A stretch of 64,000 nucleotides of DNA from Bacteroidales bacterium (GCA_012798805.1 JAAZMM010000019.1:2771-66770); one strand, 5' to 3'; positions 4,264 through 30,886 are shown, counted from the first letter of the stretch. Program-made: numbers and translations. Notes: a model not told the origin generated them from the letters alone.

Positions 4264-5579
4264 AAGAGATCTCTATAAAGGCCCTCCAAATGGCTCTGGA
4301 TGCGGGTGCATCCAATGTGCGGGTAATTTTGGAGAAGGGTCGTGGTGATGTGGTGACTATACTCAACGGAAAGATTGACCGTCTCTATCAAGCTGCCAGC
4401 TCGGTCCTCTATTTCCATATCTTTGCCGGAGGAAAATACGGCACATTTTCCACCAACCTGATGGATGAAGTAACGCTGAGGCAATTTACCGCCAATGCGG
4501 TGAACGCTACGCTACTGATGACCCCTGATGAGCACAGGTCTCTGCCGGAGAGAGAGCTCTGCTATAAAGGAGATGGACCTGACCTTCAGCAGTATGACCC
4601 CTCCATTGAGAGTCGTCCTTCCACCAGGGGAATCGCTATTGCGCAGGAGGTGGCGGCAGAGATGCTCTCTGACGGCAGGGTTATTTCAGCGGAGAGCGAA
4701 TATGGGGACTATGTGGAAGAGCACTTTATCGCGGATAGTTTGGGATTTGAAGGTTATCAGCGCAAATCCGGTTTTGCAATTGGAGCTACCTGTTCCGTTG
4801 GCGGCAAAGGCGATGAAAAACCCGAAAGAAATTGGTATGAAGATGAGGTTTTCTTTGACAATCTCCAATATAGGGGATGCGGTACCAAAGCTCTGAATAT
4901 GGCGCTTGAAAGCATAGGTCCGGTCAAAATGCCTTCCGGTTCATACAATATGGTTGTAGATAGAAACATAGCTGCGAAACTTGTAATGCCCCTTACCAAA
5001 GCACTTAAAGGCAGTGCCCTTCACACACGCAATTCGTTTCTGGTGGATAGACTTGGTGAGAAAGTTTTTGGGGAGAATGTCTTTCTGAGAGATATGCCAC
5101 ACACTATCGGCAATGCCTCCTCCCGTCTTTTCAATATCGAGGGCATAGCCACAAAAGAACGGGATATCATTTCCGGGGGCACTATTTGCAATTATTTTAT
5201 CGACAATTATTATAGCCGCAAATTATCCCTTGCTGTTACCATCGGCACACCTTCGGTGGTAATAATGCCCAAAAATGAGCTTTTGTCAAATAATAAATTA
5301 TCTTTGTCTGATATTTTAAAGAGAGCAGAGAGAGGTATTTATGTCACTCAATTCAACGGAGGTAACTGCAATGCCGCCACAGGAGACTTCTCCTACGGCA
5401 TAGAGGGATTTTTGTTTAACAATGGGGAAATAACACATCCGATAAATGAAATGTTGGTGTCGGGCAATCTCATTAAGTTGTGGAACAATCTCATAGTTAC
5501 TGCCGATGACCAGATGAAGAGTCGTAAATGGCAGATACCTTCACTCTGTTTCTCAAACGTTAATTTCAACGGACTCTGA
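4260..5579 (+). CDS. pmbA: PmbA/TldE family metalloprotease
   Basis: MKEISIKALQMALDAGASNVRV... Its ATG overlaps the tldD TGA (ATGA), the usual tldD-pmbA pairing. The track ORF starts earlier (4194) in the same frame. Confidence 0.85.
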   Translation: MKEISIKALQMALDAGASNVRVILEKGRGDVVTILNGKIDRLYQAASSVLYFHIFAGGKYGTFSTNLMDEVTLRQFTANAVNATLLMTPDEHRSLPERELCYKGDGPDLQQYDPSIESRPSTRGIAIAQEVAAEMLSDGRVISAESEYGDYVEEHFIADSLGFEGYQRKSGFAIGATCSVGGKGDEKPERNWYEDEVFFDNLQYRGCGTKALNMALESIGPVKMPSGSYNMVVDRNIAAKLVMPLTKALKGSALHTRNSFLVDRLGEKVFGENVFLRDMPHTIGNASSRLFNIEGIATKERDIISGGTICNYFIDNYYSRKLSLAVTIGTPSVVIMPKNELLSNNKLSLSDILKRAERGIYVTQFNGGNCNAATGDFSYGIEGFLFNNGEITHPINEMLVSGNLIKLWNNLIVTADDQMKSRKWQIPSLCFSNVNFNGL

Positions 5580-22641: not shown

Positions 22642-22645
<4 letters not shown>

Positions 22646-25641
22646 CTCGTTTTCAGTTTGTCTAAACGCATTTCAACTTGTTCTTTCACATCATCGGACC
22701 CCCCTGTGGGTTCATATCCTTCAAGTACGCTCTCATATGTTGCCACTGCCTGTTCAACATCTCCCCTATCCGCAAATGAATCACCCAGGACGATAAATGC
22801 TTTTGCAAGCCAATAAATCTGAGGGGTTTCGGATTCTGAAAAGTCATAAACTCGATTTTCAACAGCGATAAAATCACCGGCTCCATAAGAATCCATAATC
22901 AGCAAATAGGTAGCCTCAGCTCCATAACTGTCATGAGGATTACGGGAAAGAGTAGTAAGAATCGGTTTTGCCTCTTCCCTATTATCGAGAAACAGAAGAC
23001 TCTTTGCGGTAATATATTCTGCCTCACGCAACATCTCTTCAGGAAGATCTGTTACCCCGCTCACCCTTTTGGCATCTGCAACCGCCTCCTCATACTGCTT
23101 ATTGTTGTAATAAGAGCGCATACGGCCAACATAGCCGCTATTTTTCATATTTTCGGTACTGGCGATATAAATGAGAGATTCATATGCAGTGACTGCCGTA
23201 GAGTAGTGCTCGAGTTCCAATGAAATATCGGCATAATTGCGGGTAGCTGCTTCGGCAAAAGGGCCCTCGCCCCGTTTTATAACCTGGAAGTAGGCATCTG
23301 ATGCGGCCTCTTTACGCCCTTTAGCCTTAAGAGACTCGGCAAGGTAATAGTATGCCTGTGCCGTCTTGGAACCGGAAGGGTATTTTTTTACAAATGATTG
23401 CAGCGATGAAATGGCTGAGTTATGGTTGCCCGAAAGGTAACGTTGTTCTGCAGCATTGAAAAGCATAAGCTCCTTCTCATCCTCACTTTTAATATCCGAC
23501 ATCCCGAGAGTTTCGAGGTATGCGAAGTACTCTTCAGGCTGATTGATGGTCTGATAGACGCTTTCCATACCCGATATGGCATTGGGAACCTCGGGTGAGA
23601 GCGGCATCCCCTCAATAATGTTCTTATAATATTCGATTGCCTTGTTGTATTTACCGTTGTTGGCATTTATCATCGCCAGTTCGAGCATTGACTTAGTAAA
23701 ATAGGTACTATCTGCATCATGCCCGATAAGGGTCAGAAAGCACTCTGCCGCATCATCGTCGGCCCCACGCTGCACCAGGGTGCGTCCCAATTCGAAGAGA
23801 CACTGTGTGTAAAGTTCCGCATTGCGATTGATCTTGAGAGCTTGTCTGAGTATGGTTATCTTTCTCGTATCATTGCCAAGGAGTCCATAAGAAACAGCGC
23901 TCTGATATGCCGGATAGAGATCGTTTGAAGTGGGATATCTGTTAAAGACCTGCTCGTAAGTGGTGGCAGCAGCCGTATAGTTGTTCTGCATGAAATAAGA
24001 GTCTGCAAGACGCACACGTGCATCCTTTTCAAACTGTTTACGACCGCTCCTGCCTAAATATTCAGAAAACCATTGCTGAGCTCTGTCAAATCTGCCCCAC
24101 ATAAAATAACCGTATGCAAGGTTATATATGGCCGTAGGATACTGCTCCGAATCGAGAAAATAGGGGTTTTCCATCAGACCGAGGTTTATATTTGTGGATT
24201 GACGATATCTTCCATTACGGAAATGACACTCTGCCAGCCAATACTTGGCAAGTGCCTCAAGCCGAAGATCGTGACGTCCATTCTCTATTGAAAGCTCCAG
24301 CATGGGAACTGCCGATCTGTAGCCTCTGTTTTCAATTAGCTGCATAGCTCTGAAGAATGCAGCTTTCTGAAGGTTTGCCGAGGATTCGTCTGAAAGTTCG
24401 CGTATCTTTGTAAGAGCTGCCACAGCAGAGTTGTAGTCCTTACTTAAAAGGTATGAGGCTGCAATGTAACTATTGATGATATCATCTTTTCCACTCTCCG
24501 GATATTGCTCCATATATTGTTCAAAACCTGAGATATCGCCATTGACGTCAAATGAGAGTTTCGCATGATTGAAAAGGGCATCTTCTTTGATGACAATGTC
24601 AAAATCCGACTCTGCTGCCGCTTTAAAGGCCTCCATTGCAGCAATTTTATTGTGTTGACGCAGATGGCTGTTGGCACTATAATAGTAAGCACTCTGACCA
24701 ATAGCATCTTCACTGCCGACAACTTTACTAAAAGATTCTATGGCTTGTTGAAATGCCTGGAGCGTATATGATAGAAGTCCGGAGTAATAATGGTCTTTTC
24801 GGCTAAGATTGCCTCCGGATGCAGAAAACATATCGAAATATTGGGCAGCCAAAGTCGGCTGTCCCATTGAAAAATAGGCCTCGGAAACTATTCTCGCCAT
24901 ACTGACCTGCAAATCACGATCGAGGGTATTAAAAATTGCAGGACCCCGGTCAATTACATATTTGTAATTTTCCAGCATGAATTCCGATTCGACGACATAG
25001 TACGATGCAAGCACGGAAAAGCGGGGGTCTTTCTCAGCTTTTCTGAAAAGTGGCAAAGCAGCATTGAAATCCTTTTCCAGATAACGAACATAACCTAAAT
25101 AATATTGGCTGGGAACAGTGTAAGGATTGAATTCGCCCTCAATAATAGCGGTCAGCTTCTCTGCTGCCACATCTGTATTGCCGGCTCTGATATAACAGTA
25201 TGCACTTTTAAAGTCATATTCAATCTGCTCCTCCGCATAAAGGAAGGGCTTTTTTATGGAATCATAGATGACAAGTGCATCAGCATACTCTTCCCTGTCA
25301 AAAAGACGCGAAGCCAGGGCAAACTTAACCATCTGTAGCTCCGGGGCATTGGGGTATCTGTCCTCGAAATTTTTTACAAGACCGGCAATATTCGACCTGT
25401 CCAGACGAATTGCACACATGGTCTTGTAGGCCTCTACCTGAATGGCAAAAATAGAAATATCGCTATCCGGATCCGGAGTCACCCTATTCAACATCTGCTC
25501 TGCCGAATAGAAGGCTCCTTGCCTGTAAAGGTCAAGTGCTGACTCAAAACGGCTGTCGCTATGGCGTTCTTGTGCCATCACCTGCCCGGACAACATTAGG
25601 GCAAGTAGGACAAGTAACACTATAAAACCTTTATTTTTCAT
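22642..25641 (-). CDS. large secreted tetratricopeptide-repeat protein
   Basis: About 999 aa from MKNKGFIVLLVLLALMLSGQVMAQ (ATG at 25641; the track ORF starts 13 codons earlier at 25680). TPR-like A/Y/F-rich 34-residue periodicity runs throughout. Confidence 0.75.
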
Positions 25642-25807
25642 CAAACAAATTTCGTCAAAGTATCGTATAAACATCCGCATCAGTCACATTCAAATATCAG
25701 GTAAAGTGTTTTATTTTAATATGTTAACACAAACCTGCTATTCCTAAAACATAAAAGACAAAAATACAAAAAAAATCTCATTTATTGTAGTTATATTAAA
25801 GGATTAA

Positions 25808-26560
25808 TCAGAACACAAATCCATAACCAATACTTATGTTAATATTTCTACCCGCGGTTGAGGTTTCGTAAAACATTTTGTTGTACACCTGATCGGTACT
25901 GACTATTAATTCTGCTGAGGATTTTTGTAACGGTTGTTGAAAGTTTATATCAAGAAGCAGAGAGCCGTTGTTTGAAATGAGATATCGGGTTGACAAACCA
26001 AAATTTACAAGCAGAGATGATGCCTGTTGTTTATATGATAAATTGCACCTGATGCCATCTTTTTCAACACTCTTTGATAAATCTCTATTCGGCAAATAGG
26101 TCATATATCCTATTCCGACTCCCGGATGAACCTTCCATCTGTTTTGCTCAAACCGATAGATGACTCCGATGTCTAAAGCCGGGTGAATCAGACTTGGCAA
26201 TGGAAAAAAAGCATCAACCAAACCCTCCATCATATCATCCACAAAACCGGATGGGTAATATTCCGACTTATTACATTTATAAATATTTACCTGAAACCTC
26301 GCATATACTCCTACTTTTTTTGAAAAAAGATATGTTAAACGAAGTCCGGTCACAGGAACAACCTTCGGCTTTAAGTCAAATAGTTCGGGTTCGGATAGCG
26401 AGCTTGAGCTTATCAAGTCTATATTTGCCCCTACTTTCACATCAAGCAGCCATTTATGGTTTTGATGATTTAAATAAATTTTCTCCATTTGTTCCTGCTG
26501 ACCATAGCAGCATAAACCGAAAAAGAGAAATATAAGGGTCAGGCAATAAGATTTAGTCAT
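25808..26560 (-). CDS. small outer-membrane beta-barrel (porin-family/PorT-like) protein
   Basis: 250 aa with signal peptide MTKSYCLTLIFLFFGLCCYGQ, beta-strand periodicity, and a C-terminal GYGFVF. Confidence 0.65.
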   Translation of the reverse strand: MTKSYCLTLIFLFFGLCCYGQQEQMEKIYLNHQNHKWLLDVKVGANIDLISSSSLSEPELFDLKPKVVPVTGLRLTYLFSKKVGVYARFQVNIYKCNKSEYYPSGFVDDMMEGLVDAFFPLPSLIHPALDIGVIYRFEQNRWKVHPGVGIGYMTYLPNRDLSKSVEKDGIRCNLSYKQQASSLLVNFGLSTRYLISNNGSLLLDINFQQPLQKSSAELIVSTDQVYNKMFYETSTAGRNINISIGYGFVF

Positions 26561-26622
26561 GAGTAGGGAGTGTGTAGTGTGTAGTAAGGAGCTCAGAACT
26601 CAATACTAGTAACTCGGAACTA
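26561..26622. repeat. head-to-head heptamer arrays meeting at a GAGCTC palindrome
   Basis: The plus strand reads GAGTAGG GAGTGTG TAGTGTG TAGTAAG GAG|CTC. The minus strand, starting at the radical SAM TAG stop (26622-26620), reads TAGTTCC GAGTTAC TAGTATT GAGTTCT GAGCTCC. It fills the entire 59-nt spacer between two genes. Confidence 0.65.
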
Positions 26623-27693
26623 ATTTAATCTTCCCATCATTTCCAGATGGCATTGCAAAAGTTCACCGGTTTGCTCGTCGCGAAGATGTAAACCATTACC
26701 TTCACAATATTTGTAAGCTTTACAAGTGGCACATTTTCCCGTTTTAGTCCAGGAACGGTCACGCATTATCTGATATTTGGTATTCCAAACGGTCCAGAAA
26801 TCATCTTTATATATATTACCTTGAATATAATCGCCACGCAGGCTCGGACAGGCGCTGATATCACCATTTGCCAATACCGAGCCAATGTGAATGCCCGCCT
26901 GGCAGAAGAAAGGAGCATCTCTCACTTCAAGTTCATAATCCGCCAAATAGCCTTCACAGCCGTATGAGGCGCGTATTTTTCCCTCTTTTCTGGTCTCCTT
27001 TATAAAATCCAACATCTGAACGAACTCCTCAGTAGAAAGTCTGAGCAACGGATTATCTTTTGCCCTTCCTTTAGGGAAAACGGTAAAAAGTCTCCAGTGA
27101 GTAACGCCAAGCGAAAGCAACAATTCCTTTAGTTTATATAAATCGGGCAACGACTTTTTATTAACACAAGTAACCACGTCATAAACCAGATCGGGAGTAG
27201 AGGCCACTCGCCTAATAGCATCCACAGCCCTCTTCCATGAGCCCTTTTTACCGCGAAACCACTCGTGAGACTCTGCCGTATAGCCATCGAGGCTCACGGT
27301 CACCGAGCGTAATCCTGAACTGAGCAATTTATCCAATCTCTCTTGTGAAAGTCCCCATCCATTGGTTACAAATCCCCACGGATATCCCATATCATACATA
27401 GCTCTTCCGCACTCTTCCAGGTCATTTCGCATCAAAGGTTCTCCTCCGGTAAGCACAATCATGGTCTTATTGGGATTTACATGCGGGCGAATATCTTCAA
27501 GCACTTTCAAAAAATCCTCTTTAGGCATATCGGGAGTGAGAGATTCGCGTGTGCAGTCACTTCCACAGTGAATACAGTTGAAGTTGCACCGCAGGGTGCA
27601 TTCCCAAAAGAAATATGTGAGTTCGTGTAATTTTGCTTGCGTTTTTCTATGTTCGCGAAATAGATTCAGCAGGATTCTTTTCCGTAATTTCAT
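26620..27693 (-). CDS. radical SAM/SPASM-domain protein (lipoprotein-associated family)
   Basis: 357 aa with CNFNCIHC (CxxxCxxC), GGEPLM, and a Cys-rich C-terminus: FFCQAG...SACPS...GKCATCKAYKYCEG...LQCH. From memory it resembles the family NCBI names as a TIGR0413x radical SAM/SPASM protein. The accession is not verified. Confidence 0.85.
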   Translation of the reverse strand: MKLRKRILLNLFREHRKTQAKLHELTYFFWECTLRCNFNCIHCGSDCTRESLTPDMPKEDFLKVLEDIRPHVNPNKTMIVLTGGEPLMRNDLEECGRAMYDMGYPWGFVTNGWGLSQERLDKLLSSGLRSVTVSLDGYTAESHEWFRGKKGSWKRAVDAIRRVASTPDLVYDVVTCVNKKSLPDLYKLKELLLSLGVTHWRLFTVFPKGRAKDNPLLRLSTEEFVQMLDFIKETRKEGKIRASYGCEGYLADYELEVRDAPFFCQAGIHIGSVLANGDISACPSLRGDYIQGNIYKDDFWTVWNTKYQIMRDRSWTKTGKCATCKAYKYCEGNGLHLRDEQTGELLQCHLEMMGRLN

Positions 27694-27710
27694 CTTCGGC
27701 CAGGTTTTAA

Positions 27711-28223
27711 CTACTCTTCCTCTTTCATTTCCTTATATGTTGATGCAGGAACGCCATACTCGGGAACAGGTTGAAAATGTTGGAGTTTAAAATTAGCATC
27801 TTTCTTTTCAAATATTCCGTCATACCACCCTCCTTTTCCTTTCTTTACCTGTGTCATTTGCTTTGTGTTGACCAAAATTGAATCGGGTCCATACCATCCG
27901 CCATCATCCGTTCCTTCCAAATCTTTGGCAACAACCCAATAGTCTTCTCCCGGAAAATCATTAAATTTCAACTCATAATCGCCAAGAGCATTGGTCCGTA
28001 CCGTATCATTCTTGGGTGAGTGACGCGATTTTTTGATGACTGCAATATTTTTAAGCGGCTTTTGCGACTCCTTATCCGTAACCTTTCCCTTAATTACATA
28101 ATCTGCATTTGGAACGCCATATTCTACCGTAGGTTCGATCCAATCGCATCCGGTCAACATTCCTACCAGAGAGAAAAAGAGGGTTAATATTTTACCATAG
28201 GTTTTAAGCGCAATTTTTTTCAT
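27711..28223 (-). CDS. radical SAM-associated putative lipoprotein, copy 2
   Basis: 170 aa with lipobox LTGC, then VEYGVPNADYVIKGKVTDKESQKPLKNIAV (CarboxypepD_reg-like beta-sandwich start), and C-terminal PVPEYGVPASTYKEMKEEE. Confidence 0.8.
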   Translation of the reverse strand: MKKIALKTYGKILTLFFSLVGMLTGCDWIEPTVEYGVPNADYVIKGKVTDKESQKPLKNIAVIKKSRHSPKNDTVRTNALGDYELKFNDFPGEDYWVVAKDLEGTDDGGWYGPDSILVNTKQMTQVKKGKGGWYDGIFEKKDANFKLQHFQPVPEYGVPASTYKEMKEEE

Positions 28224-28239
28224 GACTATTCAATTAAGA

Positions 28240-28758
28240 TTATTCTTTGGTTTTTCCCTCCAGATCCTTATATTCTGCTGACATGACACCATATAGTGCA
28301 ATAGTCGCATGTTCCATTTCAAAGTTCAAATTCTCCTTGAGAAAAACTCCTACAAACCAACCGCCACTACCCTCTTTCACCTTTTTCATTTTTTTCGAAT
28401 TAACTATTGCCGACTCGGGCGCATAGACTCCGCCATTATCCTCCCCATCCAAATCTTCGGCAAATATTCGATTGTCCTCCCCGGGAAATGCAGTAAACCT
28501 TAATTCAAAGTCACCACGGGCATTAGTCCGCACCGTGTCGTTTCCAATTGGTGATACTTCGGTTTTTCTTATGACTGCTATGTTTTTAATCGGCTTTTTC
28601 GACTCCTTATCAGTTACCTTCCCTTTAATGATAAAATCTGCCGCCGGGACCCCATATTCAGGTACGGGCAGGGGTTTTTCGCATCCGGTGCCAATACCCA
28701 AAAGGGCAAAAAGCAGAGTTATTATTTTGCCGTAGGTCTTAATGGCTATTTTTTTCAT
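28240..28758 (-). CDS. radical SAM-associated putative lipoprotein, copy 1
   Basis: 172 aa with lipobox GTGC, then VPEYGVPAADFIIKGKVTDKESKKPIKNIAV. It is a paralogue of copy 2, with more than half of residues identical by eye. Confidence 0.8.
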   Translation of the reverse strand: MKKIAIKTYGKIITLLFALLGIGTGCEKPLPVPEYGVPAADFIIKGKVTDKESKKPIKNIAVIRKTEVSPIGNDTVRTNARGDFELRFTAFPGEDNRIFAEDLDGEDNGGVYAPESAIVNSKKMKKVKEGSGGWFVGVFLKENLNFEMEHATIALYGVMSAEYKDLEGKTKE

Positions 28759-29079
28759 AACTTTCTGTGCATTGAGATTAAAAATAAAATAACTTTTGTC
28801 TAATTACATATACGCAGTCACTGACTAAATACTTCCGTTAATGTTAAATTATTTTAAATCATAGAAGAATTCGTAATTTTTGCCGCTTAACAATATTGCA
28901 CACAAAATGTGCCGAGCGATACTTTAATGTCAAGATTTTGCATCCGCAATAGTTATAATTAGATGCAAAAAAGGACAAAAGCGCTGCATTGAAATGATTT
29001 TTTGGCATTTTATCGCCCAATAAATATTGGGTATTTGGAGAAAGCTGATTTGATCTAAAATTATTTAAAAATAAAAATG

Positions 29080-29087
29080 TATTTTTG
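29080..29087 (+). promoter_or_regulatory. candidate -7 promoter box for ftsE
   Basis: TATTTTTG lies 20 nt upstream of the ATG at 29108. Confidence 0.45.
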
Positions 29088-29107
29088 TCTCCAAAGAATC
29101 TCAAAAA

Positions 29108-29785: not shown

Positions 29786-30407
29786 GCAGGTAATAGACTG
29801 GTTTGAAGCCAATATGCCGGTGGCTGAGAGTGAACTGGACTATAAGAATCCTTTCCAGCTGCTCTGCGCAGTGATACTTTCTGCTCAGGCTACCGACAAA
29901 AGAGTCAATATGATTACCCCCGAACTCTTCGAACGATTCCCCACTCCCGAAGATATGGCCGCATCAAATGAGAACGAGATCTATCAAATCATACGCTCGA
30001 TCACTTATCCCAATAGTAAAGCTCGCCACCTGCTGGGGATGTCCCGAATGCTGGTAAGCGACTTTGGGTCTGTTGTGCCGGATGATATTGATGAGCTGCA
30101 GAAACTCCCCGGTGTAGGACGTAAAACAGCCAATGTGGTGGCATCGGTCGTTTACAACAAACCGGTTATTGCCGTGGACACACATGTATTCCGTACCGCA
30201 CGCCGACTGGGACTCTCATCAGGCAGTACCGTACTCGAGGTAGAAAAAGATCTGACGGCCGGCTTTCCGGAACATCTTCGTGCAAAAGCGCATCACTGGC
30301 TGATTCTTCACGGCCGCTATGTCTGCACTGCGCGAAAACAAAAGTGCGAATCCTGCGGACTCGCACCTTTTTGTGACTTTTTCAATCAAAAAACAACTTC
30401 TGATTAG
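29766..30407 (+). CDS. nth: endonuclease III
   Basis: MNAKKYKQV...[11 protein letters not shown]...[12 protein letters not shown]...DTHVFR...C-x6-C-x2-C-x5-C cluster ([17 protein letters not shown]). The ATG at 29766 is preferred over the track start at 29751. Confidence 0.92.
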
Positions 30408-30886
30408 AATCTTTTTGTAACGCCAATATAGGATCTGTAAGGGGCAGCATCAAATACAATGAATCCTACATTGTATTTACCATCTGCAAATATGCCCCAG
30501 CCGTTACGGAAATTGTACTCTATACCTGCGCCTAAGTCGAGGCCAAGATGAAAATCCATATTACCAAATCCTATGCTCGCGCCAATAATGGGGTAAATAT
30601 TGAGGCCATCAACGAGATTTATCAAGTAGTGGAACCCCAGATCAAAACCAAGGCAAACGGCCTTATCAATAAATACATCGAAACCTGCCCGCCCTCTGAA
30701 ATTATTGGCACAAAAATCACCATGGAGACCAACGGTTGGGCCCAAAAATGCATAACCTATATGTCCGCCCATTGCTCCAAATTTGTTTGAGGTTTTGTGA
30801 ACCTTCTGACCCTCTACGGTTGTCTGAGCCGATAGAGATGAAACACCTATCAGAGCAACAGCCAGCAATACTATTATTTTCTTCAT
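30404..30886 (-). CDS. small outer-membrane beta-barrel protein
   Basis: 160 aa with signal peptide MKKIIVLLAVALIGVSSLSAQ, Gly/aromatic strand pattern, and a C-terminal ...GVTKRF. Confidence 0.65.
   Translation of the reverse strand: MKKIIVLLAVALIGVSSLSAQTTVEGQKVHKTSNKFGAMGGHIGYAFLGPTVGLHGDFCANNFRGRAGFDVFIDKAVCLGFDLGFHYLINLVDGLNIYPIIGASIGFGNMDFHLGLDLGAGIEYNFRNGWGIFADGKYNVGFIVFDAAPYRSYIGVTKRF

Follow-up and report, generated by a model that had tools for sequence, protein, structure and literature searches.

What does a radical S-adenosylmethionine (SAM) enzyme with a SPASM domain do beside two exported lipoproteins? The question is raised by a locus on the minus strand of a 64,000-nucleotide (nt) stretch of Bacteroidales DNA (GCA_012798805.1, JAAZMM010000019.1:2771-66770; the whole stretch is termed the window), in which four co-oriented genes encode two tandem lipoprotein paralogues of 172 and 170 amino acids (aa) (28240..28758 and 27711..28223, respectively), the radical SAM/SPASM enzyme of 357 aa (26620..27693), and an open reading frame (ORF) of 250 aa, termed ORF4 (25808..26560). 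Orientation and sizes of the genes had been given in a preliminary description of this DNA and match the ORF calls. The same description named the lipoproteins as candidate substrates of the enzyme, which appears likely, since the divergent partners encoded beside related enzymes share only a leader and Tyr-Gly (YG) motifs. We propose that the enzyme is a splicease-type maturase and that both lipoproteins are its substrates.

Family Assignment

In a hidden Markov model (HMM) search against TIGRFAMs/NCBIfam, the enzyme matches TIGR04133 with 549.7 bits (cutoff 425), and its residues 3-351 align on profile positions 1-347 of 350. Both lipoproteins exceed the cutoff of TIGR04134 (39.8), with 89.9 bits for paralogue 1 and 92.9 bits for paralogue 2, and they are 58% identical to each other, as befits the tandem paralogues described earlier. 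These scores, all above the curated cutoffs, identify the pairing that had been named in the preliminary description as a radical SAM-associated putative lipoprotein family. The Pfam matches of the enzyme are Radical_SAM PF04055 (71.4 bits, gathering threshold 29.5) and SPASM PF13186 (31.9 bits, threshold 21.5).

TIGR04133 and TIGR04134, the ‘rSAM/lipoprotein system’ of NCBIfam, are comparative-genomics families with no assigned function, and their description contains neither a motif nor a chemistry. The locus is an ordinary, typical member of this known but uncharacterised family pair. Public records of Bacteroidales metagenome-assembled genomes contain the exact proteins of the locus, labelled ‘hypothetical protein’ or ‘radical SAM protein’, and the Joint Genome Institute (JGI) label of identical or near-identical proteins is ‘rSAM/lipoprotein system’. 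The sole match in a literature search for TIGR04133, TIGR04134 or the family names was a typographical error for the type-B C-terminal domain model of type IX secretion systems (T9SS).

Conservation of the Enzyme and Its Partners

Relatives of the enzyme were collected by a scan of one genome per species, which returned at least 597; 80 loci were kept, in which ORFs were called and neighbourhoods mapped, and counts out of 81 loci refer to these 80 and the window. The 80 loci come from at least five phyla, and include Bacteroidales, Fibrobacter and other Fibrobacterota, Marinimicrobia, Hydrogenedentota, Chitinivibrionales, and Spirochaetales. The enzyme is 56-97% identical across phyla and the partners diverge fast. 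In 73 of the 77 loci with enough upstream DNA, one or more ORFs of the same direction that encode a signal-like N-terminus and YG lie immediately upstream of the enzyme gene, and the number of such partners varies from one to six per locus. The conserved unit is the enzyme together with one to six upstream exported proteins. Clustering of the remaining neighbours in the 80 loci revealed nothing conserved beyond local synteny; heme/cofactor, protease, and transporter genes are not conserved, and no ORF resembling the Y protein of type I spliceases is present. The pairing of enzyme and lipoprotein anticipated in the preliminary description is thus upheld across relatives, with varying copy number, but the beta-barrel (ORF4), which had been counted as part of the operon, is found in 3 of the 81 loci. 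The Fibrobacter loci L044, L050, L053, L063, and L066 contain arrays of up to 4-6 leader-and-YG genes with the leader MFYKHWKKI..FWA[SG]C, and in some of them the radical SAM gene is present as a tandem duplicate.

Judged by sequence, the mature parts of the partners are unrelated, and what they have in common is a predicted N-terminal signal/lipobox leader and X-Y-G motifs only. The first class comprises the beta-sandwich lipoproteins of TIGR04134. Peptides of 60-92 aa form the second class, and are made up of a leader with its lipobox Cys and one to three xYG(V/T)P repeats (CEEPDIPLPAYGIVPMYGVPAST in L009, which has a 63-aa precursor at 4874-5065; GCPPVVLYGPVPEYGVQPAYGVPAVY in L036). The third class, Cys-/Ser-rich proteins of Fibrobacter with the leader MFYKHWKKI..FWAGC, has up to 7 YG in 247 aa (L047), and the fourth combines a signal of the signal peptidase I (SPI) type with a T9SS sorting domain (L023). 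Apart from matches of 8-10 residues centred on PEYGVP, no similarity was detected between Fibrobacter partners and the lipoproteins of the window. TIGR04134 recognises the beta-sandwich class only and misses the short peptides, the Cys/Ser-rich proteins of Fibrobacter, and the T9SS-tailed partners; no NCBIfam or Pfam model matched the non-sandwich classes. The short precursors of leader and YG imply that the beta-sandwich domain is dispensable. That no short precursor of a ribosomally synthesized peptide modified after translation (RiPP) is visible, as remarked earlier, holds for the window, where a search of the 64 kb found no further ORF with leader and YG, but not for the relatives, which have precursors of 60-92 aa.

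Two forms of partner may be noted. In the Chitinivibrionales and Fibrobacterota loci L023 (1273-2103) and L039 (5207-5989), the partner has an SPI-type signal, YG, a beta-sandwich, and a T9SS domain that replaces the lipobox; the type-A C-terminal sorting domain of such partners matches TIGR04183 with 30.3 bits (cutoff 23). In L031 (354-599, ‘..FEACYGTP’) and L017 (4018-4545, ‘..FAACYGPIE’), the lipobox Cys itself is the X of X-Y-G. If these sites were spliced, the lipidated residue would be converted to a beta-amino acid.

The YG Motif

Among all dipeptides of the 153 partner ORFs, YG is the most strongly over-represented: it occurs 295 times, and the composition of these ORFs predicts 79.6 occurrences (3.7x); the 555 control ORFs from the same loci contain 501 against 505.8 expected (0.99). 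With one partner per cluster, 26 YG were counted, and the shuffled sequences gave a mean of 8.7 +/- 2.8 and a maximum of 19 in 2000 shuffles. The enrichment is seen separately in Fibrobacterota (4.9x) and in the remaining phyla (3.3x), and 140 of the 153 partners contain at least one YG. The first YG is usually situated ~5-25 residues from the lipobox Cys, and acidic residues follow this Cys in 81% of the partners. The consensus context is P(-4)-V-P(-2)-[E/L/K/M]-Y-G-V-P-x-A, in which the +2 residue is nearly always V, T, A, P, C, or I and thus bears a C-beta. In the alignment of the Bacteroidales family (A2), Glu34, Tyr35, Gly36, Pro38, Ala40, and Asp41 are invariant at a mean column identity of 58%. 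With good confidence, we consider the YG sites to be the target of the enzyme.

Both lipoproteins of the window share one plan: an X-Y-G located 8 residues after Cys26, a small beta-sandwich, and a second X-Y-G in the C-terminal tail. In paralogue 1, the leader or lipoprotein signal peptide (aa 1-25, MKKIAIKTYGKIITLLFALLGIGTG; 28684..28758, minus strand, as for all sites given here), which is conserved across partners, is followed by the lipobox Cys26 (28681-28683). The proposed N-terminal splice site, E34-Y35-G36 (28651..28659), lies in the context PLPVPEYGVPAAD and is invariant in alignment A2; the proposed C-terminal site, L155-Y156-G157 (28288..28296), lies in the context TIALYGVMSAEY, and its xYGV is conserved in most members. 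Paralogue 2 has its lipobox Cys26 at 28146-28148, and its proposed sites are E34-Y35-G36 (28116..28124, context EPTVEYGVPNAD) and E155-Y156-G157 (27753..27761, context QPVPEYGVPAST).

The AlphaFold2 (AF2) model of lipoprotein 2, with a mean predicted local distance difference test (pLDDT) score of 77, consists of a helix (2-25), a coil (26-39), a confidently modelled beta-sandwich (40-147), and a disordered tail (148-170). A fold search with this model identified the sandwich as transthyretin-like/CarboxypepD-reg-like. The tether that carries E34-Y35-G36 has low pLDDT (~57-59), as does E155-Y156-G157 in the disordered tail (44-52). The main YG sites lie outside the fold in the model, which places them in accessible, unstructured segments. 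A third YG of lipoprotein 2 (W110-Y-G) is within the fold and is not conserved, and other clades have LYD or FYD where the leader here has ‘TYG’. We also note that the gene of lipoprotein 2 uses 14-mers identical at 13 of 14 positions (27748-27761 and 28111-28124) for its two EYGVP motifs, which suggests a motif duplication or strong constraint.

Relationship to Spliceases

Published work identifies X-Y-G as the motif targeted by the radical SAM/SPASM spliceases PlpX, RcsX, and RasX. Splice tags that have been used experimentally are PlpA3 AVAAMYGVVFPW (AVAAMYGVVF) and PlpA2 PIRPxYGLPI, and the partner context P(-2)-X-Y-G-V(+2)-P(+3) matches these PlpA2/PlpA3 tags (P-X-Y-G-V/L-P). The plp locus was retrieved via the PlpA3 sequence from Pleurocapsa PCC 7319, and PlpX (L081:8754-10013) belongs to TIGR04103 with 824 bits. 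BLASTP aligns the enzyme with PlpX over residues 21-349 with 28% identity (E=2e-38), a full-length homology. PlpX in turn matches the TIGR04133 model over its full length with 147.6 bits, TIGR04133 being among its top five models, and the best peptide-maturase model for the enzyme is TIGR04103, with 118.1 bits. A sequence search of the PDB with the enzyme did not find a splicease structure, and the nearest entry was BlsE (67 bits).

The spliceotide systems, namely type I PlpX/PlpY/PlpA of Pleurocapsa and RhaX/RasX/RcsX of Rheinheimera, resemble the present locus in that a radical SAM/SPASM enzyme is encoded beside one or several X-Y-G precursors, which have the P-X-Y-G-V/L-P context and possibly multiple sites each. 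The binary arrangement is shared with the Y-less spliceases, in which, as published, an N-terminal leader helix binds the enzyme; a helix is also predicted at the N-terminus of lipoprotein 2. No convincing similarity was found between PlpY and the partner leaders. In contrast to the spliceotide enzymes of TIGR04103, the enzyme belongs to TIGR04133 and has Gly for the fourth Cys of CX2CX5CX3C as well as extra conserved Cys residues. The leader of spliceotides is of the Nif11/NHLP type, whereas here it is a lipoprotein (or SPI/T9SS) signal peptide. Unlike in the spliceotide systems, many substrates here would be folded exported proteins, a protease/exporter gene is absent, X is often Glu or Lys, and the splicing chemistry is proposed by analogy.

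The literature searched contained nothing that connects spliceases with lipoproteins, Bacteroidetes, or Fibrobacter. Scott et al. (Chem 2022, 8:2659) are reported to have screened 3418 rSAM-SPASM (rSAM, radical SAM) proteins for YG-rich neighbours, to have found such enzymes in 189 genera, and to have confirmed 27 splicease-substrate pairs. A screen of this kind would very probably have flagged the TIGR04133 family, and the functional link of TIGR04133 may already be published.

Cysteine Pattern of the Enzyme

The CX3CX2C motif of the radical SAM cluster, CNFNCIHC (Cys36, Cys40, and Cys43), is encoded at 27565..27588 on the minus strand. In the alignment of TIGR04133 enzymes (A1), Cys36 and Cys40 are invariant and Cys43 is near-invariant. 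The SPASM-type auxiliary-cluster region, C264...G277x4C282...C321x2C324x5C330...C348, is encoded at 26650..26904 on the same strand. Both the motif and the Cys-rich SPASM/twitch-like C-terminus had been pointed out earlier and are now located. Measured against the seven-Cys criterion for SPASM domains, CX9-15GX4C...CX2CX5CX3C...C, the enzyme retains CX12GX4C, CX2CX5C, and the terminal Cys, and throughout TIGR04133 Gly334 replaces the fourth Cys of CX2CX5CX3C (C330-E-G-N-G334). PlpX carries the full CKTCEFAELCRGGC in place of this interrupted motif.

The TIGR04133 enzymes have invariant or near-invariant Cys residues of their own, Cys32, Cys47, Cys95, Cys176, and Cys246, which PlpX does not possess, and a conserved N-terminal extension of ~20 aa relative to PlpX. 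From the alignment, the altered Cys set may represent a re-wired auxiliary cluster or an additional metal site, and the invariant Cys246 may substitute for the absent fourth SPASM Cys.

Precedents for Modification ahead of Export

The preliminary description regarded an Fe-S enzyme acting on an exported lipoprotein as an unusual logic, which overstates the case given the precedents of anSME and QhpD. Sulfatases are matured by anSME before they are exported, and QhpD forms the cross-links of the periplasmic subunit QhpC; the two reactions, whose chemistries are cited in PMC8326336, take place in the cytoplasm. As proposed for the TIGR04133 enzyme, these radical SAM/SPASM enzymes thus act on proteins before translocation, which holds for QhpD as for anSME. 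They differ in their targets, since anSME acts on C/S-x-P-x-R and QhpD forms Cys-Asp/Glu thioethers, and their models are not among the top NCBIfam matches of the enzyme. The sole Cys of each lipoprotein in the window is the lipobox Cys, and a sulfatase motif is absent. An anSME-like formylglycine role was rejected on these two grounds, the C/S-x-P-x-R motif being the one looked for, and thioether chemistry of the sacti or ranthi type was rejected on the grounds that the mature Bacteroidales partners have no Cys other than that of the lipobox.

Proposed Mechanism

The best explanation of the locus is a two-component, Y-less splicease-type system in which the lipoprotein signal peptide serves as leader and the enzyme excises tyramine at XYG, a proposal made by analogy to which we attach even chances. 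The cytoplasmic TIGR04133 enzyme would act on the unfolded precursor ahead of Sec export, and would recognise it via the conserved signal-peptide helix, which would double as a RiPP leader in the manner of the published binary spliceases. By analogy with PlpX, RcsX, and RasX, a tyramine equivalent (C8H9NO, -135.07 Da) would be excised at the X-Y-G sites. Cutting the tyrosine out of the backbone would leave a reactive keto group, in a product derived from Glu at both N-terminal sites and from Leu (paralogue 1) or Glu (paralogue 2) at the C-terminal ones. Sec, Lgt, and LspA would then export and lipidate the protein and remove the leader, so that no dedicated protease or transporter gene would be needed.

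Spliced products have been reported to inhibit proteases. It may be speculated that membrane-tethered ketoamides serve as reactive handles or as electrophilic warheads, which could, for example, inhibit Ser/Cys proteases covalently and reversibly in anaerobic habitats rich in proteases. The broader proposition that TIGR04133 is a large phylum-spanning splicease clade, with the Sec/lipoprotein signal peptide as leader, that makes membrane-anchored ketoamide warheads in anaerobes is put forward more tentatively, as a possibility that falls somewhat short of even.

Alternative Functions

Several observations weigh against tyramine excision. The chemistry is proposed by analogy of motif, and the enzyme lies outside the characterised splicease equivalog, its 118.1 bits comparing with a TIGR04103 cutoff of 725. 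Glu, Lys, or Asp frequently occupies the -1 position of the partner XYG, and RcsX has been reported to leave one DYG site unspliced. The Cys pattern unlike that of PlpX and the extra conserved Cys could signal a different chemistry. Recognition of the leader by the enzyme is moderately supported, as a basic-x-aromatic-x-basic motif of the n-region occurs in 52% of the partners and in 20% of control lipoproteins. By HMM score, moreover, the enzyme is equally close to AhbD, TIGR04053, and NirJ2. The separate equivalog, the altered Cys, the Glu, Lys, or Asp at X, and the unspliced DYG make a different radical reaction at Tyr-Gly a serious rival. With the same substrates and the same target, the enzyme might form a Tyr crosslink (for example a three-residue cyclophane Tyr-Gly-Val/Thr of the triceptide kind, or a C-O or C-C link), epimerise, or beta-hydroxylate. 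The modest identity of 28% to PlpX agrees with this, and a +2 residue with a C-beta is compatible with an aromatic-to-C-beta cyclophane. In triceptide motifs, however, it is the third residue that is conserved, and the middle one varies; the partners show the reverse, an invariant Gly and a variable +2 residue, and in this they resemble XYG splice sites. The sequence around the motif also matches the PlpA splice tags, and no model of a cyclophane or crosslink maturase ranks above TIGR04103 among the top NCBIfam matches. We consider this other chemistry unlikely on balance.

The kinship to AhbD, TIGR04053, and NirJ2 bears on another explanation, in which the enzyme acts on a small molecule or cofactor of the tetrapyrrole type and the lipoproteins are binders or carriers rather than substrates. 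AhbD (139.1 bits), TIGR04053 (132 bits), and NirJ2 (121.1 bits) are the best non-self NCBIfam matches, AhbD and NirJ being the top-scoring characterised models for the radical SAM core, and a highly conserved enzyme beside fast-diverging partners would be in keeping with such a role. The scores, however, are far below the cutoffs of 395-500 (500 for AhbD and NirJ), and the clear orthology to a cofactor-biosynthesis enzyme that the preliminary description had named as refuting was not found. PlpX, a genuine splicease, itself scores 168 bits with AhbD and 146 bits with NirJ, and a likeness common to PlpX provides no argument for a cofactor role. Tetrapyrrole gene context is absent here, and heme or cofactor genes are not conserved nearby in the relatives. 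Partners of unrelated fold that share only leader and YG fit substrates rather than binders, and they are exported, whereas the Fe-S enzyme has no signal peptide. A cofactor role is accordingly rated as very improbable. About as little credence is given to the explanation that YG is a structural signal of exported proteins or one that sorts them, for instance to the cell surface, with the enzyme acting elsewhere, such as near the lipobox Cys, or with a purely regulatory meaning of the adjacency. The position of the first YG close to the lipobox Cys, the acidic residues that follow this Cys, and the few partners in which the Cys itself is X (L031 and L017) would suit such a signal. YG is, however, also C-terminal and repeatedly internal, with the 7 copies of the L047 protein as the extreme, it occurs in proteins with SPI/T9SS sorting that have no lipobox, and its enrichment is specific to adjacency with the radical SAM gene. 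To our knowledge, no known sorting signal has a YG form.

Significance of the System

TIGR04133 is found in thousands of Bacteroidales and Fibrobacter genomes from gut, rumen, and digester. Should the splicease-type proposal be true, tyramine splicing would for the first time be seen as a routine step in maturing structural proteins that are exported, signal peptidase II would act as the leader protease, and the signal peptide would be shown to double as a RiPP leader. Ribosomal formation of beta-amino acids (ketoamides) would then reach from peptides secreted by cyanobacteria and proteobacteria to proteins that dominant anaerobes anchor in their membranes. A family labelled ‘rSAM/lipoprotein system’ or ‘hypothetical protein’ would gain a concrete chemistry, -135.07 Da at defined residues, and protein engineering would gain naturally short splice tags (P-X-Y-G-V-P) together with a compact, single-component enzyme of 357 aa.

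Operon Layout and Neighbouring Genes

Successive genes are separated by 16 nt between the two lipoproteins, 17 nt between lipoprotein 2 and the enzyme, and 59 nt between the enzyme and ORF4. These gaps agree with the preliminary description, as does the AT-rich region upstream, given there as ~350 bp, which spans 349 bp (28759..29107) at a GC fraction of ~0.30-0.32 and is presumed to contain the promoter of the operon. The ‘repeat’ nature ascribed to the 59-nt spacer did not hold up; trivial low-complexity sequence was found there and no repeat of at least 12 nt. A scan of the upstream region for the sigma-70 consensus, which does not cover Bacteroidota promoters, gave 9 sites against 10.5 expected from shuffled sequence, and a terminator scan gave no excess over chance. 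No tRNA genes and no Rfam families at the gathering threshold were found in the 64-kb window (1-64000).

ORF4 (minus strand) is adjacent to and co-oriented with the enzyme gene, but is not conserved; it is present in the window, L001, and L002 and absent in L003 despite an enzyme that is 93% identical. It is a lineage-specific bystander and not a component of the system. Its family comprises proteins of ~250 aa in 77 representative clusters, and PF13505 (OMP_b-brl) gives weak matches to 11 of the 28 members sampled. For ORF4 itself Pfam yielded no match, its NCBIfam match to an outer-membrane protein (OMP) model (17.5 bits) is below the cutoff of 60, and its single-sequence AF2 model has a pLDDT of 36, too low for use. 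Of the earlier reading as a signal-peptide beta-barrel of 250 aa, the size stands and the barrel is weakly supported; a small outer-membrane beta-barrel is plausible from the family matches. The NCBI record NMB36751.1 for ORF4 has a later start (226 aa), with which the predicted signal peptide is lost, and of the two forms, the one of 250 aa, which has MTKSYCLTLIFLFFGLCCYG|QQ, seems the likelier.

Directly downstream of ORF4, a tetratricopeptide repeat (TPR)-rich protein of 1012 aa with a signal peptide is encoded at 22642-25680 (minus strand), and its synteny is confined to L001 and L003. A signal-peptide protein of 160 aa at 30404-30886 (minus strand), which ends in ...GVTKRF and resembles a small OMP, is conserved in L001-L003 and is unrelated to the radical SAM system.

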